Virus record (IMG/VR): IMGVR_UViG_3300023109_003600
Span: 57,650 to 121,649 of that record
Length of the DNA stretch: 64,000 nt
Reading direction: 5' to 3' (one strand)
DNA from: a virus
Part shown: piece after piece, positions 7,893-61,877 of the stretch
How the letters are laid out: the number at the start of each line of letters is the position of its first letter
How positions within the stretch are numbered: position 1 is the stretch's first letter
Notes under the pieces: model-generated
What the model was told of the DNA's origin: nothing
The model's input: only the letters and a program-made list of their open reading frames with translations
Databases searched by the model: none
Made by a program: the position numbers and the translations under genes

Positions 7893-8296
7893 TATGAGCA
7901 TCAATACAGAATACGTTTATGTAGTAACTCGCAATAAAAGACGGGTAGAACCAGTAAGTTATAAAACTATATCAGAAGCTCAAGATAGGGCAACAGGTTT
8001 AGTAGAAACCCTTAAAAAGTGGAAAGATCCAGATTACAACAAGGTCTCAATAACAAAGACTAGGCATCCGCACACCATCACCTAATTAATCATGATAAAT
8101 TATATTTTAAATAAATTTATGCCAATTTTAATTATAACCTTTTTACTCTTCTTAAATTTTGGGTTTTATAAGATCGAACCGTACATAATACTAGGGCTAG
8201 TAGCCTTTATTACTAACTTTAATTACAAGGTTGGTTACTCTATGGGAATTTGCGAAGCAAAAGGAATAAACTTAAAGTAAAAGTGTATATTTATAT

Positions 8297-9007: not shown

Positions 9008-9757
9008 ATACAGAACTAAATACTCAGAAAACATTTATGACAGAAATTGGGGCAAAAATGGAGCAATGTTTATCAGCAATCTTGTCAGAGCTTCTATTTT
9101 TAACGAGTTTGAATTGGTTAAGCAGGGTTTTTCCCCAAGTGCTACTTTTGATATTACGTTTCCGCATGCTTTAGTTGGTCTTAATGTAAATGGCAAAGAT
9201 TATCTTTCATATAAAGAGGGTAATAAAGATCAACAAATAAAATACAAAGCAAAAGATGGCATGAAAGAGATAGCTACTTTTTTAAAGCGAAAAAAAATAC
9301 TAAATAAATCAAATTACAAAAACTTTCGAACGAAAGTTTTCATTCTTTTCGAACAAAAAACTGGTGGAAATTTCTTAGAAATTATAAATGGGGGAGGTAT
9401 AAATTTCCTTGAAAAAATCGAAGATCAACAGAAAAATTCAAGGTTATTTACTTATGATTATTACGAATCTATTTGCGTCAACAATATAGTGCATTGTTAC
9501 GCCAGTCTACATTGAATACTATCTATCAAGAATCAGGTTGCTGGTTTACATACGACTATGCGCATAAAAAAATATTCTTAAGCGTTGATCAGGTTAAGGC
9601 GCTCTGCCCTGCTGTAGATAAATTTACTGAAGACTCGGTAAAAAGATTCTCAAAAATTAAACTTAGTAACAATTTTCATAATTGCACTTTGATACCAACA
9701 AAAAACATAAAGGATATATATAATAGCTTGTTTAAAATAAAACAAAAAAAGTGTTGA
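8997..9757 (+). CDS. Two hypothetical ORFs (8997-9515; ~9512-9757)
   Basis: Coupled ORFs, no recognisable motif. Confidence 0.55.
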
Positions 9758-9782
9758 CAAAACCATACTACTGATGTAATAT
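9754..9782 (+). promoter_or_regulatory. Sigma70-like promoter upstream of the ncRNA candidate
   Basis: TTGACA(9754-59)-N17-TAATAT(9777-82). Confidence 0.75.
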
Positions 9783-9789
9783 ATATACA

Positions 9790-10128
9790 TAATCAAAATT
9801 GAGAATCAAACTCAAGCAAATAAAATAATTGATCTTTAACATTTTAATTTGAGGTTTAACCCAATCTTGCAAGAGAAGGGAATCATCGTTTAACTGCCTA
9901 AAGTTAATCCTCAAAAAACTTTGGAAGGGCTTATAATCCTTCCTGTGGGTGACTGAAATAGCCTGTTGTGAGCGGGCTAAGGTATACAATTCTCTGTGGT
10001 AGAGTGCCAATGGACAAATGTCTGAGGCAGGGTTCCCAACCCTAATTGTAGTGCGAGTAGGAAAATTATGAACTGATGTTCACACCAAAAGTTGAGAGTA
10101 TACAGTAATCTCTCCCCACACTTATTTT
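9790..10128 (+). ncRNA. Highly structured ncRNA or long leader; 3' core 9944-10120 resembles the phage manA-type RNA motif (recalled, not searched)
   Basis: No + strand ORF. GC-enriched, with at least 10 pairings, e.g. TTTGAGG/CCTCAAA, GGAAGG/CCTTCC, TGTGGG(9944)/CCCACA(10115), TAGCCTG/CGGGCTA, TACAATT/AATTGTA, AGGGTT/AACCCT, TGAAC/GTTCA, GAGAG/CTCTC; followed by a T-run. Confidence 0.72.
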
Positions 10129-10137
10129 TTAAACCCC

Positions 10138-11356
10138 ATGATCTTTATAAAAAAAGACGAACAATCAAGAAACGCACTAAAACTAATTAAGCAGGTTCTA
10201 CAAGCTCATCAAGACATGTTAGAACAAAAAGAGTCTGAACTAGTATGCATTGCCTCAGAAGAAATTAAAAATGAAATTAACAGCATCCTAAAAAACAAGG
10301 CCCCGCAAGAAGAAACGTTTTCTAAAGCAGATCTAATTTCTCAAGAGATAGAAGTTATAGATATAAAGATAGCTGCTATACAATATACGTACGATTACGT
10401 AAAGTTGATGTTAAAACAATGCGAAAAATTGGAAAAGAATACATAAAGTATCATCTCGAAAATACCTTTCGAGAGCAATCAAAAGAAAGACGGTTACTAA
10501 AAATTGACTGGTACGACGAAAAAGGAATACGGGCAGCGGCTTATATGTCAAAAGTAAATCCCAACCATGAGGATGTAGACAATTTTCTGCAAAACAAAAG
10601 TTTAACAGACTTAATTTTACTTTTTCCACCCCTGGAGGTAGAATAAATAAGATTAATTATTTATATACGAAAATCCAAGTGTAATAAAATTCATGGACCC
10701 AACCTTTAAAAATATAATGTTTATCCTTATCTCTGTCTTTATTACATGGGAGTACTATTCAAGAGGAAAAGAGGTTGAGGAGTTAAAAGAAACAATATTC
10801 GTTCAACATCAAGCGATAGATTCTCAGAATTTATTAATTAATTTTTATAAAAATAAATTTCACGAAGAATCCTACAACCCTCCTTTCTATGAAAGCCAAC
10901 AAAAAATAAACAAATATGAAAGTAAGTGAATTAGTAAAAAAATGCAACTATAAAAAAGTTTTTAATATAGTTTACAAGAAATATTTAATAAATAAATCTC
11001 CCGAACATGTAATCAGAGTAGATCTGGAAATTCAAAAAGCTTATAACTTCATAAGTAAAGTGTCATGTTCCCCAGAAGTCGCAAAAGATAGTCACTCGGT
11101 ATACGTACTCTTTACAGAGGGTGAACAAGTAGATATATGTATTCATGATGAAGAATCAGACGAATTATGCTCTTTAGATCTTTATGACTGGACTCAGCTA
11201 GCATGTCTTGAATTTAAAAAGGGTTGCGAGTTATCCAGTTCAGAAATTGCTGCAGAAATACTCTGGGAAATAACCCATTGGGGAAACAATGAAGATATTA
11301 AAAAGTTACTAAAAGACATTGACGACACAATTAACAACTTGACAAAAGACGATTAA
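10138..11356 (+). CDS. Four hypothetical ORFs (10138-10446, 10419-10646, 10693-10929 with N-terminal TM segment, 10916-11356)
   Basis: ORF track; 10693 is preceded by GTGTA-N9. Confidence 0.6.
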
Positions 11357-17980: not shown

Positions 17981-18639
17981 AAATATACTATTATTACGAC
18001 GAGAAATTCAAATCACTTAAAAATAATTTCGAAAAGTCGCTTAAAGATAATTTCGAGAAACACCCAATTCAAACAAATAATTTTGATGTTAAGTCAGAAA
18101 AATTTTGCAGAGAAGAAATTGGAGGAGGCAGAGATTCTTGGCTAATGAGGTTCGACGTTATACTAAAAGGTATTAGAGAGAGCATGGGAGAGATAATTTT
18201 ATTATCTGATGTAGATATAATTTTCTTCAGGCCAGCCACCGAAGCAATACTTACATGCATGAACCATTCAGACCTCGTATTCCAAAGAGAATCATTTGAT
18301 CATGGTTTAAATGTAGGCTTTATTGCAATCAAATGCAACAAAGAGACTGAAAATTTCTGGCAAACAGCTAGAGATATTTGTTATCAAAAAAAATCCTGGG
18401 ATCAACAAGTAGTAAACGATTTAATCTATAAAGAAAATTATAAAATTAAATGGAGTCGCTTTCCTCAGCAATTCTATAATGGGAGCCAATCAAAAGTTTT
18501 ATCTAAAAACGGACAGCCTTTTTGGGATTTACAAGGTAAAACTCCTAGCGATTCTATATTATATCATGCGAACGCGGGAAAAACTTTAAAAGAGAAATTT
18601 GCTCAATTTGATATTGTATCTAAACTTATTAGAGTTTGA
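17977..18639 (+). CDS. Nucleotide-diphospho-sugar transferase (GT77-like)
   Basis: LLSDVDIIFF, LNVGF, WDQQVVN, YHAN. Confidence 0.8.
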   Translation: MKIYYYYDEKFKSLKNNFEKSLKDNFEKHPIQTNNFDVKSEKFCREEIGGGRDSWLMRFDVILKGIRESMGEIILLSDVDIIFFRPATEAILTCMNHSDLVFQRESFDHGLNVGFIAIKCNKETENFWQTARDICYQKKSWDQQVVNDLIYKENYKIKWSRFPQQFYNGSQSKVLSKNGQPFWDLQGKTPSDSILYHANAGKTLKEKFAQFDIVSKLIRV

Positions 18640-19250
18640 TGATAGATCACAGGACTAAATCTATTTTTATTCATATGCCTTGTACTGGAGGAACAAGCAT
18701 CGAATCAGCTTTACTTAACGATCCGAGTGGCGGGAGATCAGTAGATATTAAAGAAAAGCATATAAACTCCTTGACGGCCAAAATAATTTACAAACAATAC
18801 TGGAATGATTATTTTAAATTCAGTTTTGTAAGAAACCCCTGGGGACGCATGCTTTCTATGATGAAGTTTAGAGATAAAAGCCTATACGGCATAAAAGAAT
18901 TAGACGGGAAAATTAATCTTGATGAATACTTAAAAATTCACCCATTTATTGAAGTAGACCCAAGAGCTAGGAATTATAGTAAAAATTGCTACATTAAAGG
19001 ATCTGTTTATCAAAATTTTTTAAGTGAAGACCTTGATTTTGTCGGCAAATTTGAAAACCTGCAAGATGATTTTAATAAAGTATGCCGAGAGTTAAACATT
19101 GAGTCAAAAGAATTGCCAATTATTAATTCTAGCAACTATAAAACTCCTATCAAAAATTACTTCAACGAAAGATCTAACAATCAAATTCGAAAAATGTTCG
19201 AAAAAGATATATTATATTACAAATACAATGAACCTTGGAAAAATCAGTAA
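18639..19250 (+). CDS. Sulfotransferase (Sulfotransfer_2, HNK-1/CHST-like)
   Basis: FIHMPCTGGTSI (Cys in place of the usual Lys), FSFVRNPWGRMLS, FVGKFENL. Confidence 0.82.
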   Translation: MIDHRTKSIFIHMPCTGGTSIESALLNDPSGGRSVDIKEKHINSLTAKIIYKQYWNDYFKFSFVRNPWGRMLSMMKFRDKSLYGIKELDGKINLDEYLKIHPFIEVDPRARNYSKNCYIKGSVYQNFLSEDLDFVGKFENLQDDFNKVCRELNIESKELPIINSSNYKTPIKNYFNERSNNQIRKMFEKDILYYKYNEPWKNQ

Positions 19251-38437: not shown

Positions 38438-39220
38438 ATGAGTGAAATAAAAGAAAATAAAACAATTTTTCAAATTTGTATAAATTTAAATGATGATATT
38501 GAGGAATTAAAAAAATCAAGAAAAAGATTTTTAGATTTAAATCCATCCTGGAATTATTTGTGTATTGAAAGCCAAGATCATTTGGATCAAATAATGATTG
38601 ATAATTTTCAAAAATCAAACGATGAATTTGAAAATAATATATACAAACTATATTCCGAAATCCCAAATCTTAATAATGGAGGCAGTAAGGCACGTAGGAT
38701 CGCCGACGCAAGCGAGAAAGAACGAATTCGTTTAATTTGTGTGTTGGTTTCACGCACAGATATATTTCGTCTTGGGATGATTTATAAGTTCGGCGGTCTT
38801 TACCTTGATTTAAGTTCAAAACTTGAAATTAACATAGATTCTGAACTTGCTCGTTATGATTGTGCCTTTGTTCGTTCTCCTGCGGAAATTCGTAGTAGTT
38901 TTATTTACGCAAAAAAAGGGCATTTTGTTATAAAGCAAATACTCGATGTTGCAATTCAAAGAGGGCTTGTTGAAAAGTGTAGCAGTCAGATGCAATTGGC
39001 AGGTCCAGGTTGCATTACAGACATAGTTACAAAAATTGCAAATCTCTCGCTCGAAAGCCTAGATGAATTAGTTGAATATAAAACTAAAATTTTTAGAGGG
39101 GGTGATTTGAGTAGAAAAGTAGGTTGGACCATGAATGCAATCTGGAAACGTGATCTTCATAAACAACCAGATAATAATCCTAATAAAAAAATTAACAATC
39201 ATTGGCATTTTGATTACTAA
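38438..39220 (+). CDS. GT32-like glycosyltransferase
   Basis: NPSW.Y, RTDIFR, GGLYLD, AGP. Confidence 0.8.
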   Translation: MSEIKENKTIFQICINLNDDIEELKKSRKRFLDLNPSWNYLCIESQDHLDQIMIDNFQKSNDEFENNIYKLYSEIPNLNNGGSKARRIADASEKERIRLICVLVSRTDIFRLGMIYKFGGLYLDLSSKLEINIDSELARYDCAFVRSPAEIRSSFIYAKKGHFVIKQILDVAIQRGLVEKCSSQMQLAGPGCITDIVTKIANLSLESLDELVEYKTKIFRGGDLSRKVGWTMNAIWKRDLHKQPDNNPNKKINNHWHFDY

Positions 39221-57628: not shown

Positions 57629-59908
57629 ATGATTATTGCAAAAGAAAAAAGTAAACGAGTTGTACAAAGCCATGACTTCGAGTCAGTCAACTGCACTATT
57701 GATGCAGAAGATATGCGTTATGTTGCATCATTATTGAGAAACAATTATTCAAATCCACCTCTTGCAGTTGTAAGAGAGATTACTGCAAATGGTCTTGATG
57801 CCAACCTAGAAGCAGAATCAAGCAGACCTATTGAGGTGTCTATTCCAACCAAGTTTAGTCCAAGCTTTCGAGTGCGTGATTTTGGTGGTGGGCTATCGCA
57901 AGAAGATGTTTTTGGATTATATTCTAAGTATGGGAAATCCACCAAAAGAGATTCCAATAATTATATTGGTGCTTTTGGCATTGGTAAATTTGCCCCATTA
58001 TCTTATGGAGATAGCTTTACTTGCGTTTCGTATCATGGTGGGAATAAATCCTCTTACAATGTTTTCGTAGATGATAATGATGACACACAAATTGTAAAGT
58101 TGCACGAAGAACCAACCAATGAACCAACAGGTTTGTCGGTCGAGGTTGCTATTGCAGATTCAGATGTAAACAAATTTCGTGAGATTTGCCAAGCATTTTT
58201 TCGCTTTTTCTCTAAAAATGAAATGCCAAAATTTTTAGGTGTTGCAGATGATGAAGAATTTTTGAAAGAATTCAAGATTGCCCTCAAAGATAAGAAAGAT
58301 TCTTGGTTCATGGTTGACGATGAGCAAGATTACTATTCTCGCTCTCATGGGCAAGCTCATGCTTTTATGGGTAGAGTACATTACCCAATCAATGCCTCTT
58401 CAATCAATTTTGATGCGTACCTTGACGAAAAAGATGTCAATGCAATCAGAGAGATATGTCAACAAAGCAATCTTTATATTAGGTTTGATATTGGAGAGTT
58501 GAAATTACATCATAGTAGGGAATCTCTAGAATATAATAAGCCTACGCAAAAGGCAATTATACAAAAAATTGTATCAATTTATAAAGACATTCAAGAATTA
58601 GCTAAAGAAAAATTAGCAAATGCAGAGTGCTTGTGGGATGCGAAATCTAAGTACGCACAGGTCGTTAATGCCCTACCACACTCCTTAAAAGATGTTTTCA
58701 AAAATTGTTTTTCTTGGAATGGTAATTCTATTACCTCATCAGCTTTTTCAAGACCTTATGGTATGCACGAAAACCTTATCATTACTGAATATTCAAAAAG
58801 TAAAGACTCTAATGTTTCGGATGGTTACAAGGTCACTTCTCAAAAGTCAAGCAGAATATTAGCTTATGATTCTAGTGTGCTTGTTTATCAAGATCTGAAA
58901 AGTTCACATGGAAATGCTTTGAGAGCTAGAACATTATTCAATCAAGATGCCGATTTAAGCTCAGTTTTTATAGTTCATGCAACAGATGGAGAGGGAGAAG
59001 ATTATCTCTTCAAGCAAACAGATGGTTTTCGCCTTGACTTAATCTCAAAAGAAAACTTGTTGAATACTTCTGATGTTGAAAAAGCAAAACTGCAAGTAGG
59101 TACTAGAGCTTCGGGAGAGAGTCGTCAAAGCGTTCCAACATTTGTATTTACGGATCATGGTTATAATAATGCAGATAAATGGGCAAACGGAGAGGAGCGT
59201 TCCAATCTTGAGAAAAACCTTAAAAAGGGTGAAAAGTTAGTATATATCGCCATATCAAATTATAAGCCTTCAGATTCAGAATATAGTCTCGATGGGCTAT
59301 CTCGCCAACACAGACATCTTGAAAAATTAGTAAAAGACCTTAAAAAAGATTCTATATCAGTTCTTTATGGTGTTCGTAAAGCAGATGTTTCTAAGCTAGA
59401 CGAAGCAAAATGGATTCATTGGGATCAATACAGAACAGACTTAGCTAAACAACTTTTATTAAGCAATAAAAAAGTTTTGGCTCAATCAGAGATAGAAATG
59501 GCTTTCCTTGAGCATAGGTCAGACATGGAGCATTTTCATCAGATAGATTCTTTGATGACAAATCAATATATCTCAACCTTATTGAGTGAGCTAGATAGCG
59601 ACCATAATGTTCGCTTTGTGCATAACATTGCAAAGAAACAAGGCAAGACAGGTGAATCTAACACTCAAATGCTTTACCAACTAAAAACAATGGTAAATCA
59701 GACTGATAAGCAATGGGTGAAAGATAATTTAGGAAAACCTTATAATTGGAAATCTTTTGACAAATCTTGCAAGCAAATTACTGAAGATTATCCCTTACTA
59801 GAAGTCTTATCTCGCCACCTTTATGGTTGGCACAACATCAAGCAAAGTGGAGAAGGTGAAAAGATAATCGCTTACATTTTACAATGCGACAAACTAAAAA
59901 ACTCTTAA
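57629..59908 (+). CDS. rIIA: rIIA-like protein (N-terminal GHKL domain)
   Basis: YSNP..AVVREI.AN..DA, RDFG.GLS, Y..STK.D, IGAFGIG.F.P.SY, F.IGEL....SRE.L.Y; directly upstream of rIIB. Confidence 0.88.
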   Translation: MIIAKEKSKRVVQSHDFESVNCTIDAEDMRYVASLLRNNYSNPPLAVVREITANGLDANLEAESSRPIEVSIPTKFSPSFRVRDFGGGLSQEDVFGLYSKYGKSTKRDSNNYIGAFGIGKFAPLSYGDSFTCVSYHGGNKSSYNVFVDDNDDTQIVKLHEEPTNEPTGLSVEVAIADSDVNKFREICQAFFRFFSKNEMPKFLGVADDEEFLKEFKIALKDKKDSWFMVDDEQDYYSRSHGQAHAFMGRVHYPINASSINFDAYLDEKDVNAIREICQQSNLYIRFDIGELKLHHSRESLEYNKPTQKAIIQKIVSIYKDIQELAKEKLANAECLWDAKSKYAQVVNALPHSLKDVFKNCFSWNGNSITSSAFSRPYGMHENLIITEYSKSKDSNVSDGYKVTSQKSSRILAYDSSVLVYQDLKSSHGNALRARTLFNQDADLSSVFIVHATDGEGEDYLFKQTDGFRLDLISKENLLNTSDVEKAKLQVGTRASGESRQSVPTFVFTDHGYNNADKWANGEERSNLEKNLKKGEKLVYIAISNYKPSDSEYSLDGLSRQHRHLEKLVKDLKKDSISVLYGVRKADVSKLDEAKWIHWDQYRTDLAKQLLLSNKKVLAQSEIEMAFLEHRSDMEHFHQIDSLMTNQYISTLLSELDSDHNVRFVHNIAKKQGKTGESNTQMLYQLKTMVNQTDKQWVKDNLGKPYNWKSFDKSCKQITEDYPLLEVLSRHLYGWHNIKQSGEGEKIIAYILQCDKLKNS

Positions 59909-61329: not shown

Positions 61330-61392
61330 AGAAAGAGCCGATTGTAAGATTGGGGTTTTTTTAGGATTGGACTCTCTTATTCGTCATAACTG

Positions 61393-61430
61393 CTCCTCAC
61401 CATGTTATATGTGGTGGGGAGTTTTTTTTT
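61393..61430 (+). terminator. Rho-independent terminator
   Basis: CTCCTCACCATG-ttata-TGTGGTGGGGAG stem (with G-U pairs) followed by T9. Confidence 0.85.
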
Positions 61431-61491
61431 ATTTGAACTAAAGTAAAATTGACTTTCTAATCGTTAGCACTCATAGAAAATCATTACTTAC

Positions 61492-61543
61492 TTATATACA
61501 AAATTATATACAAAAAGAAATAATTCAAAATATAATTCAAAAT
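61492..61543. repeat. Two adjacent 12-bp tandem duplications
   Basis: TTATATACAAAA x2 (61492-61515) and ATAATTCAAAAT x2 (61520-61543). Confidence 0.8.
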
Positions 61544-61877
61544 AAATTTGTTTTTTATTATAAACCATTAGTTTTGTACTTGTTTGCTATAATTTGAAAT
61601 ACTTTCCACTTATTCATTTATAACTAATCATATACAAACTTAATACAAAGAACATATAAGGATAGAATATATAAGATTTATATAGGGAATAATACAAATA
61701 CAAGATAAGATAATAATAATGAATATGTGTTTACAACCTCCACGAATTTTCTCTTTCAATTAAGTGTGTCGCAGATTTCATTCAAAATTATATAAAATAA
61801 TATATTGAAATTTTTTCCTTTTATTTGTTCTTGACTTACTAATCATATAATGTATTATATAAAACAATATAACTGAA

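Follow-up and report, generated by a model that had tools for sequence, protein, structure and literature searches.

The manA RNA was introduced in 2010 as a riboswitch candidate located in 5' untranslated regions (UTRs), and the available parts of that study list representatives from marine metagenomes, T4-like cyanophages and two gamma-proteobacteria (Weinberg et al. 2010, PMC2864571). Two later accounts repeat this description, with no new data in their accessible parts (PMC9964418, PMC12197685), and the "manA-II" motif of 2024 is unrelated to manA (PMC11109978). Since 2010 manA has been an orphan "riboswitch candidate" with neither a ligand nor a biological role reported in the literature searched, and the sole recent advance found is a preprint of 1 July 2026 (10.64898/2026.07.01.735769). 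According to its available parts, cryo-electron microscopy (cryo-EM) of several manA RNAs of <200 nucleotides (nt) revealed that they self-assemble in vitro via kissing loops; the assemblies are built on pentamers and comprise octamers, decamers and, in one case, an icosahedral-like cage of 60 subunits. Here we report on a manA RNA with a conserved 5' leader, situated between positions 9790 and 10128 of a 64,000-nt stretch of viral DNA (positions 57,650 to 121,649 of the IMG/VR virus record IMGVR_UViG_3300023109_003600), which is referred to as the window.

Other large structured RNAs associated with phages, GOLLD and ROOL, form RNA-only cages, are often encoded near transfer RNA (tRNA) genes and act as RNA products. 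manA resembles them in being phage-coded and in adjoining a tRNA in two of the related loci described below (L035, tRNA gene at 8026-8099, Rfam, 69.4 bits; L066, a tRNA-like sequence directly after the next promoter, recognized by eye). On the other hand, GOLLD and ROOL are unrelated to manA in sequence and fold and are several times longer, and neither has an Rfam match in the window.

The window contains a full-length match to the Rfam manA family (RF01745) at 9923-10124 on the + strand, with a score of 77.1 bits against a gathering score of 55.2 (E = 7e-18). The match spans model positions 1-192 of 192 and is not truncated, and a scan of the whole record gave the same outcome. Across the 64,000 nt manA is the sole Rfam family at curated thresholds, and the complete record of 121,649 bases holds a single copy. 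The consensus strings of the family are found at 9947-9955 (GUGACUGAA), 9978-9983 (UAAGGU), 9996-10000 (the GUGGU loop) and 10098-10110 (GUAUACAGUAAUC). The original prediction, a promoter-driven structured RNA read from the letters of the window, had noted a likeness to manA, which the full-length match above the curated cut-off bears out; as it had foreseen for such an outcome of an Rfam cmscan run, the RNA call stands and most of its novelty is removed. The manA family is known and Rfam detects the window copy directly, and the RNA call itself is ordinary. What is added here concerns the surroundings of the RNA: in one abundant marine sublineage it forms, with few exceptions, a closed unit equipped with a promoter and a terminator, and it carries a conserved unpaired 5' block and tolerates or recruits structured inserts at one fixed site. 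The features of the locus are as follows.

9754-9782, + strand: sigma-70-type promoter, TTGACA (9754-9759), 17-nt spacer and TAATAT (9777-9782), 10 of 12 consensus matches
9799-9815, + strand: 5' hairpin, TTGAG (9799-9803) with CTCAA (9811-9815) and a 7-nt loop, from sublineage conservation
9827-9846, + strand: conserved 20-nt block AATTGATCTTTAACATTTTA, predicted to be single-stranded, from sublineage conservation
9848-9915, + strand: accessory stem-closed module, stem TTTGAGG (9848-9854) with CCTCAAA (9909-9915), recurring in relatives
9923-10124, + strand: manA RNA (RF01745), from the covariance-model match, sublineage covariation and metatranscriptome contigs
9923-9943, + strand: manA hairpin P1, GGAAGGG (9923-9929) with TCCTTCC (9937-9943), from sequence and family model
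9944-9949 with 10115-10120, + strand: manA closing helix, TGTGGG with CCCACA, from sequence
9985-9991 with 10044-10050, + strand: manA junction helix, TACAATT with AATTGTA, from sequence and covariation
10029-10043, + strand: manA hairpin, 52-61% paired in the sublineage alignment
10122-10130, + strand: U-run TTATTTTTT, 2 nt past the closing helix, candidate weak or leaky terminator, from sequence and relatives
10138-10446, + strand: open reading frame (ORF) of 102 amino acids (aa), 13 nt past the manA match and with no promoter of its own, 11 homologues

Folding energy alone is weak (z-score -2.15 in the manA part, 9923-10124, -1.0 in the leader, 9790-9922, and -1.4 over both together), and the support for the RNA is therefore comparative. 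Relatives with the window's version of the closing helix (GUGGG) were collected with a sequence pattern, which gave 5 loci in IMG/VR and 86 stretches in metagenome contigs, 80 of them retrieved as loci. Five of these 80 (L076, L083, L092, L109 and L110) are not manA at the Rfam cut-off and were excluded from the terminator and alignment counts. When the window structure was laid on 56 distinct cores of this sublineage, 93.2% of the cells were paired, and pairing as high as this was reached by none of 500 shuffles and by slid controls only to 35-50%. The original prediction was to be given up if covariation were lacking; in the alignment both sides have changed in 25 of the 57 pairs. For the family as a whole, 48 significantly covarying pairs are given for the manA source alignment in the available part of the Rfam 14 paper (PMC7779021). 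The sublineage alignment was used in place of a mixed MAFFT alignment of cyanomyovirus and window types, from which RNAalifold recovers only 24 pairs and in which the middle is misaligned.

The closing helix (9944/10115) and the TACAATT/AATTGTA junction had been placed correctly from the sequence alone. The junction helix is 90.6% paired in the 56 cores with changes on both sides in 4 of its 7 pairs, and the closing helix is without variation in the sublineage and differs by two compensatory double changes from the cyanomyovirus type. The 52-61% pairing of the hairpin at 10029-10043 is due to alignment gaps and is no evidence against the hairpin. In the cmscan alignment two model helices of the window manA contain non-canonical pairs, and one of the two is replaced by a longer hairpin.

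Two long-range contacts, both Watson-Crick or wobble in all 56 sublineage sequences, were picked post hoc from a scan of unpaired columns and are to be taken as leads only. Positions 9967-9968, in the loop of the second hairpin, covary with 10083-10084 (CG in 26, UA in 26 and GC in 4 sequences; GC in 52 and AU in 4), and 10074-10075 covary with 10103-10104 (UA in 56; GC in 39 and AU in 17), where the covariation may stem from one evolutionary event. A pseudoknot proposed earlier between ACTG (9952) and CAGT (10103) is not supported. It shows no covariation, and its outer A-U pair is broken in 14 of the 56 sequences; in ACUG 9952-9955/CAGU 10103-10106 the 5' side is invariant and one pair varies only from GC to GU. 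The pseudoknot would also compete with the invariant ACU/GGU pairing of the Rfam model, and in the same post hoc scan CAGT (10103-10104) covaries with the loop at 10074-10075 rather than with ACTG.

Of three stems that had been assigned to an extra 5' domain (9799-9815, 9848-9915 and 9923-9943) all coordinates hold, and the first two lie outside the family model; the third is P1 of manA itself. The locus had also been singled out as the only long GC-enriched non-coding gap. The GC content is 0.366 for the gap 9758-10137, 0.446 for the manA part, 0.278 for the leader and 0.33 for the window; enrichment is clear only in the manA part, the leader is AT-rich, and "only" was an overstatement, since the gap 38736-39134 is similar (0.363).

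Known carriers of manA include cyanomyoviruses. With a cyanomyovirus-type manA (taken from L008, not the window sequence) as query, blastn found 37 GenBank phage records, which are Prochlorococcus or Synechococcus myoviruses or marine single-cell viruses and include Prochlorococcus phages P-HM1, P-HM2, P-SSM2, P-SSM3, P-SSM4 and P-SSM7 and Synechococcus phages S-SSM5 and S-TIM4. In IMG/VR, 22 loci of this type were retrieved with an exact sequence pattern. A TTG[AT]C-N16-19-TAnnnT motif ends 22-36 nt before GUGACUGAA, just ahead of P1, in 13 of their 18 distinct upstream sequences, and the other 5 have TTGACA-17-TATAAA. A T-run stands right after the closing helix in 14 of 15 distinct downstream sequences, and the next gene, within 32-68 nt in most loci, encodes a gp32-like single-stranded DNA-binding protein (SSB) in 16 of 22 and a transaldolase in 2.

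The window and the cyanomyovirus type share the core fold, the strings GUGACUGAA, UAAGGU and GUAUACAGUAAUC, the GUGGU loop and a full-length model match, as well as a sigma-70-type promoter ahead of the RNA and a U-rich stretch behind the closing helix. They differ in the closing helix itself (GUGGG/CCCAC in the window, GGGAG/CUCCC in the cyanomyoviruses, the two double changes mentioned above), in the carrier, which in the case of the window has a DnaE-type polymerase with no more than 34% identity to any cultured phage and no cyanophage marker among its PHROG matches, and in the 5' part, where the window has a 133-nt leader whereas the cyanomyovirus type begins at P1 without leader or block. 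Compared with the RNAs studied by cryo-EM, the window copy belongs to the same Rfam family and has loops that might kiss in addition to its two covarying long-range contacts. The cryo-EM constructs (<200 nt) are without the leader.

The arrangement of the transcription unit in the sublineage is nearly uniform. A T-run followed by TTGAC within 25 nt was found in all 56 loci that have the 3' motif and at least 200 nt of downstream sequence, and likewise in 7 of 7 further manA loci missed by the 3' pattern, giving 63 of 63. By folding, a hairpin of -17 to -27 kcal/mol abuts the T-run in 45 of 48 distinct downstream sequences; the exceptions are L066, with U7 directly behind the closing helix and a tRNA gene next, and L057 and L111, with weaker hairpins. 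A terminator scan with an 8-nt loop limit found none in L037, where the loops are longer, and the folding count was used instead. As the RNA has its own terminator and the next gene its own promoter in 63 of 63 loci, the sublineage RNA forms a closed transcription unit. Seven unrelated groups are represented among the next genes, with 36 of 55 in one family of 84-98 aa that has no PHROG match, and relatives of these genes were not found in the window's record.

The promoter of the window copy, which overlaps the stop codon of the small upstream ORF (9473-9757), predicts a transcription start at about 9789-9791. That the RNA is promoter-driven, as first proposed, gains support from conservation: of 59 distinct upstream sequences of the sublineage, 43 have TTGAC-N16-19-TAnnnT with its end 10-16 nt ahead of the leader, and a promoter is also present at the corresponding position in L186 and L002. 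Across the 121.6-kb record the strict motif TTGACA-N17-TAnnnT has 13 sites on the + strand and a single one on the - strand, and ten of the 13 are in the window (6428, 9754, 11339, 46419, 46683, 49127, 51472, 54438, 55021 and 57567), a set on the coding strand that fits host-type early promoters. A second candidate promoter, TTGAGA-16-TAAAAT at 9799-9826, was discarded; its -10 element is not kept in relatives (TCAAAT, TAAATA), and the hairpin stem at the same place is.

The reading that we consider probable takes manA for an early phage RNA with a transcription unit of its own. It would function as RNA, most likely by self-assembling into a particle or scaffold, and phages of the window's clade would also transcribe it together with ORF 10138. 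Host sigma-70 RNA polymerase would start at the promoter 9754-9782 early in infection and make an RNA of about 335 nt, roughly from 9790 to 10125-10130, whose 3' end would be set, with some leakage, by the U-run next to the closing helix. A function as RNA, rather than as a switch that senses a metabolite, is suggested because nearly all relatives have the order promoter, RNA, strong terminator and next promoter, and because manA RNAs assemble as described in the available parts of the preprint. Such an RNA, produced early in infection, would most likely act by assembling with itself into a scaffold or particle, and in the window's clade read-through would in addition make the RNA the 5' leader of ORF 10138.

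At the 3' end, the window departs from the pattern of its sublineage. Between CCCACA and the ATG of ORF 10138 the sequence is CTTATTTTTTAAACCCC, and no hairpin terminator or TTGAC promoter was found between manA and this ORF in the window. The window and L186 are the exception, with a U-run followed by an ORF and no separate terminator or promoter. In L186 (same IMG/VR contig as L151) the order is the small upstream ORF, promoter, block, manA (76.7 bits), U-run and a homologue of ORF 10138 (64% identical), and L002 has upstream genes in common with the window on a contig that stops inside manA. In both the window and L186 the ORF starts within 13-15 nt of manA without a promoter of its own. 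ORF 10138 had been called an unrelated downstream gene, correctly so: its 102-aa product is conserved, with 11 homologues (102-104 aa, 51-96% identity) and no Pfam or PHROG match, and it thereby departs from the downstream-gene tendency of the manA family, which is a tendency and not a structural criterion. The loci related to ORF 10138 were retrieved with an alignment of homologues, as a single-sequence query gave none. Contig L151/L186 also holds a full-length transfer-messenger RNA match (RF00023) at L151 10941-11374 (- strand), 102.6 bits against a cut-off of 47.

This arrangement brings in the possibility of a cis-acting riboswitch or attenuator, in which the core would bind a metabolite or other factor and the closing helix with the U-run 10122-10130 would be a conditional intrinsic terminator, controlling read-through into ORF 10138 and, in cyanomyoviruses, into gp32, talC and other genes. 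The window and L186 do resemble transcription-terminating riboswitches in having a structured 5' element whose closing helix is followed by a U-run ahead of an ORF, and the U-run could serve as an expression platform. A U-run directly behind the closing helix is likewise present in L066 and in 14 of 15 distinct cyanomyovirus-type loci, manA was rated a riboswitch candidate in 5' UTRs in the available parts of the 2010 study, and the ORF without a promoter and one RNA contig that spans manA and ORF 10138 (see below) point the same way. The relatives speak against such a switch. A strong separate terminator and a fresh promoter precede the next gene in 63 of 63 sublineage loci, which makes that gene independent of read-through, and the downstream genes are diverse and have no metabolic theme in common, so that a riboswitch's combination of expression platform and consistent class of downstream gene was not found. 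Nor is there a conserved alternative pairing between the core and a terminator arm: a candidate anti-terminator, in which GAGCGGG of the P2 hairpin would pair with the terminator arm in L037, has no counterpart in L035, as judged by eye. With no ligand reported in the literature searched either, we regard a cis-acting switch as unlikely. The original prediction had left the choice between a riboswitch-like leader and a free RNA; the window genome is compatible with both, and the relatives favour the free RNA.

Transcript evidence consists only of assembled contigs of RNA libraries (runs X1-X4) placed on 9300-10800. Two seawater metatranscriptomes from two studies each gave one contig, identical to 9944-10116 and to 9945-10111, with nothing of the flanks; both correspond to the core inside the closing helix. 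Run X1 gave contigs at 9639-9898, 10004-10304 and 10293-10699, the second of which bridges manA, the U-run and the start of ORF 10138. No weight is given to the uncovered parts of 9300-10800 or to a single adapter-flanked end at 10004. The contigs are compatible with an RNA that exceeds its neighbours in abundance and with a degree of read-through.

Several observations weigh against a free-standing RNA product. The contigs give neither ends nor strand, contig ends are not RNA ends, and carry-over of DNA is possible. The promoter at 9754-9782 is a consensus match only. The window and L186, without a terminator hairpin or promoter before the ORF, resemble a cis-acting leader, and the U-run followed by a gene in the cyanomyoviruses (14 of 15; gp32-like SSB in 16 of 22) also fits a structure-dependent attenuator. 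Terminator-then-promoter pairs surround many early genes in T4-like phages, and the layout alone is therefore no proof of a function in trans. As regards assembly, the available parts of the preprint describe it in vitro only, at high RNA concentration, 10 mM Mg2+ and 50 C and with other family members, and they still term manA putatively cis-regulatory (10.64898/2026.07.01.735769).

The 133 nt outside the family model (9790-9922) consist of the hairpin, the unpaired 20-nt block and the stem-closed module. In relatives the order is promoter, 10-16 nt, hairpin, A-rich linker, block, variable insert, and ACUUUGG with P1. Counts refer to 67 distinct upstream sequences of at least 300 nt each. The hairpin is present in 56 of them, with a nearly invariant stem and a variable loop, and the block in 57; both occur together in 51 and neither in 5, these being the 5 non-manA pattern matches that the 67 include. 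The block AATTGATCTTTAACATTTTA is identical at 20 of 20 positions in L186 and L002 and at 19 of 20 in L037, L036 and L100. The hairpin is missing from L186, L002 and L097, and since the promoter -10 element in these three lies about 10 nt ahead of the block, the block would there be the 5' end of the RNA. Only the block, among the parts of the leader, is common to the window and its closest syntenic relatives L186 and L002.

The insert between block and manA varies from 0 to >300 nt and consists of stem-closed modules that recur between contigs. The distance from block to core is 46-355 nt, with clusters at about 46-49 (no insert), 71, 98-116 and 137-158 and beyond. The window's own module (9848-9915) was found in five distinct sequences (the window, L100, L043, L080, which is the L037 sequence, and L129), and other relatives have different modules or none. 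Conservation is seen in the inner part of the module, and the five versions retain the outer stem despite sequence divergence. In L053 the 5' module is tandemly duplicated, and the 3' trailer of L079 has four tandem copies of a 12-nt unit. A conserved and apparently structured region of >300 nt lies between hairpin and P1 in L046, L050, L056, L079, L091, L104, L119 and L120.

As judged from these comparisons the leader is specific to one marine manA sublineage and not due to chance. The proposal of an extended variant of manA thus holds for 9790-9922, where hairpin and block recur and the module is found in five sequences, and fails for 9923-9943, which is manA itself. The block and the beginning of ORF 10138 have a 9-nt direct repeat in common, TGATCTTTA; L186 lacks this repeat, which was taken as chance.

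The leader could instead be mere spacer or recombination debris between promoter-terminator cassettes, so that only the manA core matters. The folding energy of 9790-9922 is ordinary (z = -1.0), the insertion site accepts unrelated modules of 0 to >300 nt, including the duplication in L053, and hairpin and module are missing in the closest syntenic relatives. Against this stand the recurrence of the hairpin (56 of 67) and the block (57 of 67) and an outer stem kept in five versions of differing sequence, though the double-change counts of that stem are inflated by a one-column offset in the gapless module alignment. On balance a leader without function appears rather doubtful.

The conservation of the block also allows a reading as a trans-acting regulatory or decoy RNA, with 9827-9846 as a seed for host or phage RNA or as a protein site and the core as a scaffold for stabilisation or protein binding. 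No other part of the leader is conserved as well as the block (19-20 of 20 positions across phages with differing flanking genes), it is unpaired and without a pairing partner in the consensus fold of 14 minimal units, the RNAs of L186, L002 and L097 would begin with it, and the unit is free-standing. Against this, neither a second copy nor a complementary target was found within the window at up to 3 mismatches, and the cyanomyovirus-type manA has no leader or block, which means that the block is not the core function of the family. Such a role for the block seems to us quite unlikely. A still more far-reaching proposal, for which we see little chance, is that the manA core, produced early in infection, is a self-assembling and shell-forming RNA and that the variable 5' modules, the 3' trailers and the invariant single-stranded block are displayed or enclosed payload arms; the sublineage would then consist of modular, phage-encoded RNA nanoparticles whose accessory modules pass between phages as cassettes. 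These explanations and the favoured one, a free-standing RNA product, are partly compatible and not all mutually exclusive.

Sequence identity suggests that the RNA unit itself is exchanged between phages as an independently moving cassette, because the window RNA is closer to the non-syntenic L037 (core 88%, promoter and hairpin 85%, module 80%) than to the syntenic L186 (core 81%). The PeSL promoter-terminator cassettes of T4-like phages shuffle in a comparable manner (PMC2839356, PMC4122927). As far as the available parts of these studies show, PeSL and the manA unit both combine a terminator stem-loop and an early sigma-70 promoter around small early units, with a mosaic distribution that suggests shuffling; PeSL are regulatory DNA cassettes around protein genes, whereas here the enclosed unit is a structured RNA.

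In the literature searched we found no account of a conserved manA leader with a fixed insertion site, of the near-universal layout of promoter, RNA, terminator and promoter in the sublineage, or of manA in a phage group with a DnaE-type polymerase, although the supplements of Weinberg et al. (2010) and of the preprint may show some of these. The genomic context directs experiments to a trans-acting or self-assembling RNA in preference to ligand screens, and the natural length variants can be used to locate the extra domains on the assembly.

The record that carries the window's manA is an IMG/VR virus contig with a GC content of 0.335 and nearly all genes on the + strand. The gap 9758-10137 is flanked by the small ORF 9473-9757 and the 102-aa ORF 10138-10446, both on the + strand, and genes for dCMP deaminase, dUTPase and PhoH are found directly upstream of manA. 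The record also codes for rIIA, rIIB, a clamp loader, NrdA/B, a UvsX-like recombinase, a DnaB-like helicase and a DnaE-type polymerase whose identity to GenBank phages does not exceed 34%. Neither capsid or tail genes nor a cyanophage marker were among the PHROG matches of the record. A blastn search of 9400-10500 against GenBank phages gave no match, meaning that this collection contains no close cultured relative; a marine source is indicated by the occurrence of the sequence in seawater metatranscriptomes.

Some further observations were made in the window. A stretch of about 35 kb (11377-47713) is rich in glycan and nucleotide-sugar genes, among them those for a GT7-like glycosyltransferase, several nucleotide-sugar epimerases, three sulfotransferase-like proteins, an acetyltransferase and an aminotransferase, as well as three cytidylyltransferase or heptose-adenylyltransferase-like paralogues (12861, 32511 and 40151). 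The block has a TTGACA promoter of its own at 11339, and 1.2 kb separate its start from the manA RNA upstream. Two stretches are free of ORFs of at least 45 aa on the + strand, 17981-19098 (1118 nt, GC 0.323) and 61330-61877 (548 nt, GC 0.234), and neither has an Rfam match at the curated threshold. What looked like long non-coding gaps where the record begins proved to be an open-ended ORF of 948 aa on the - strand.

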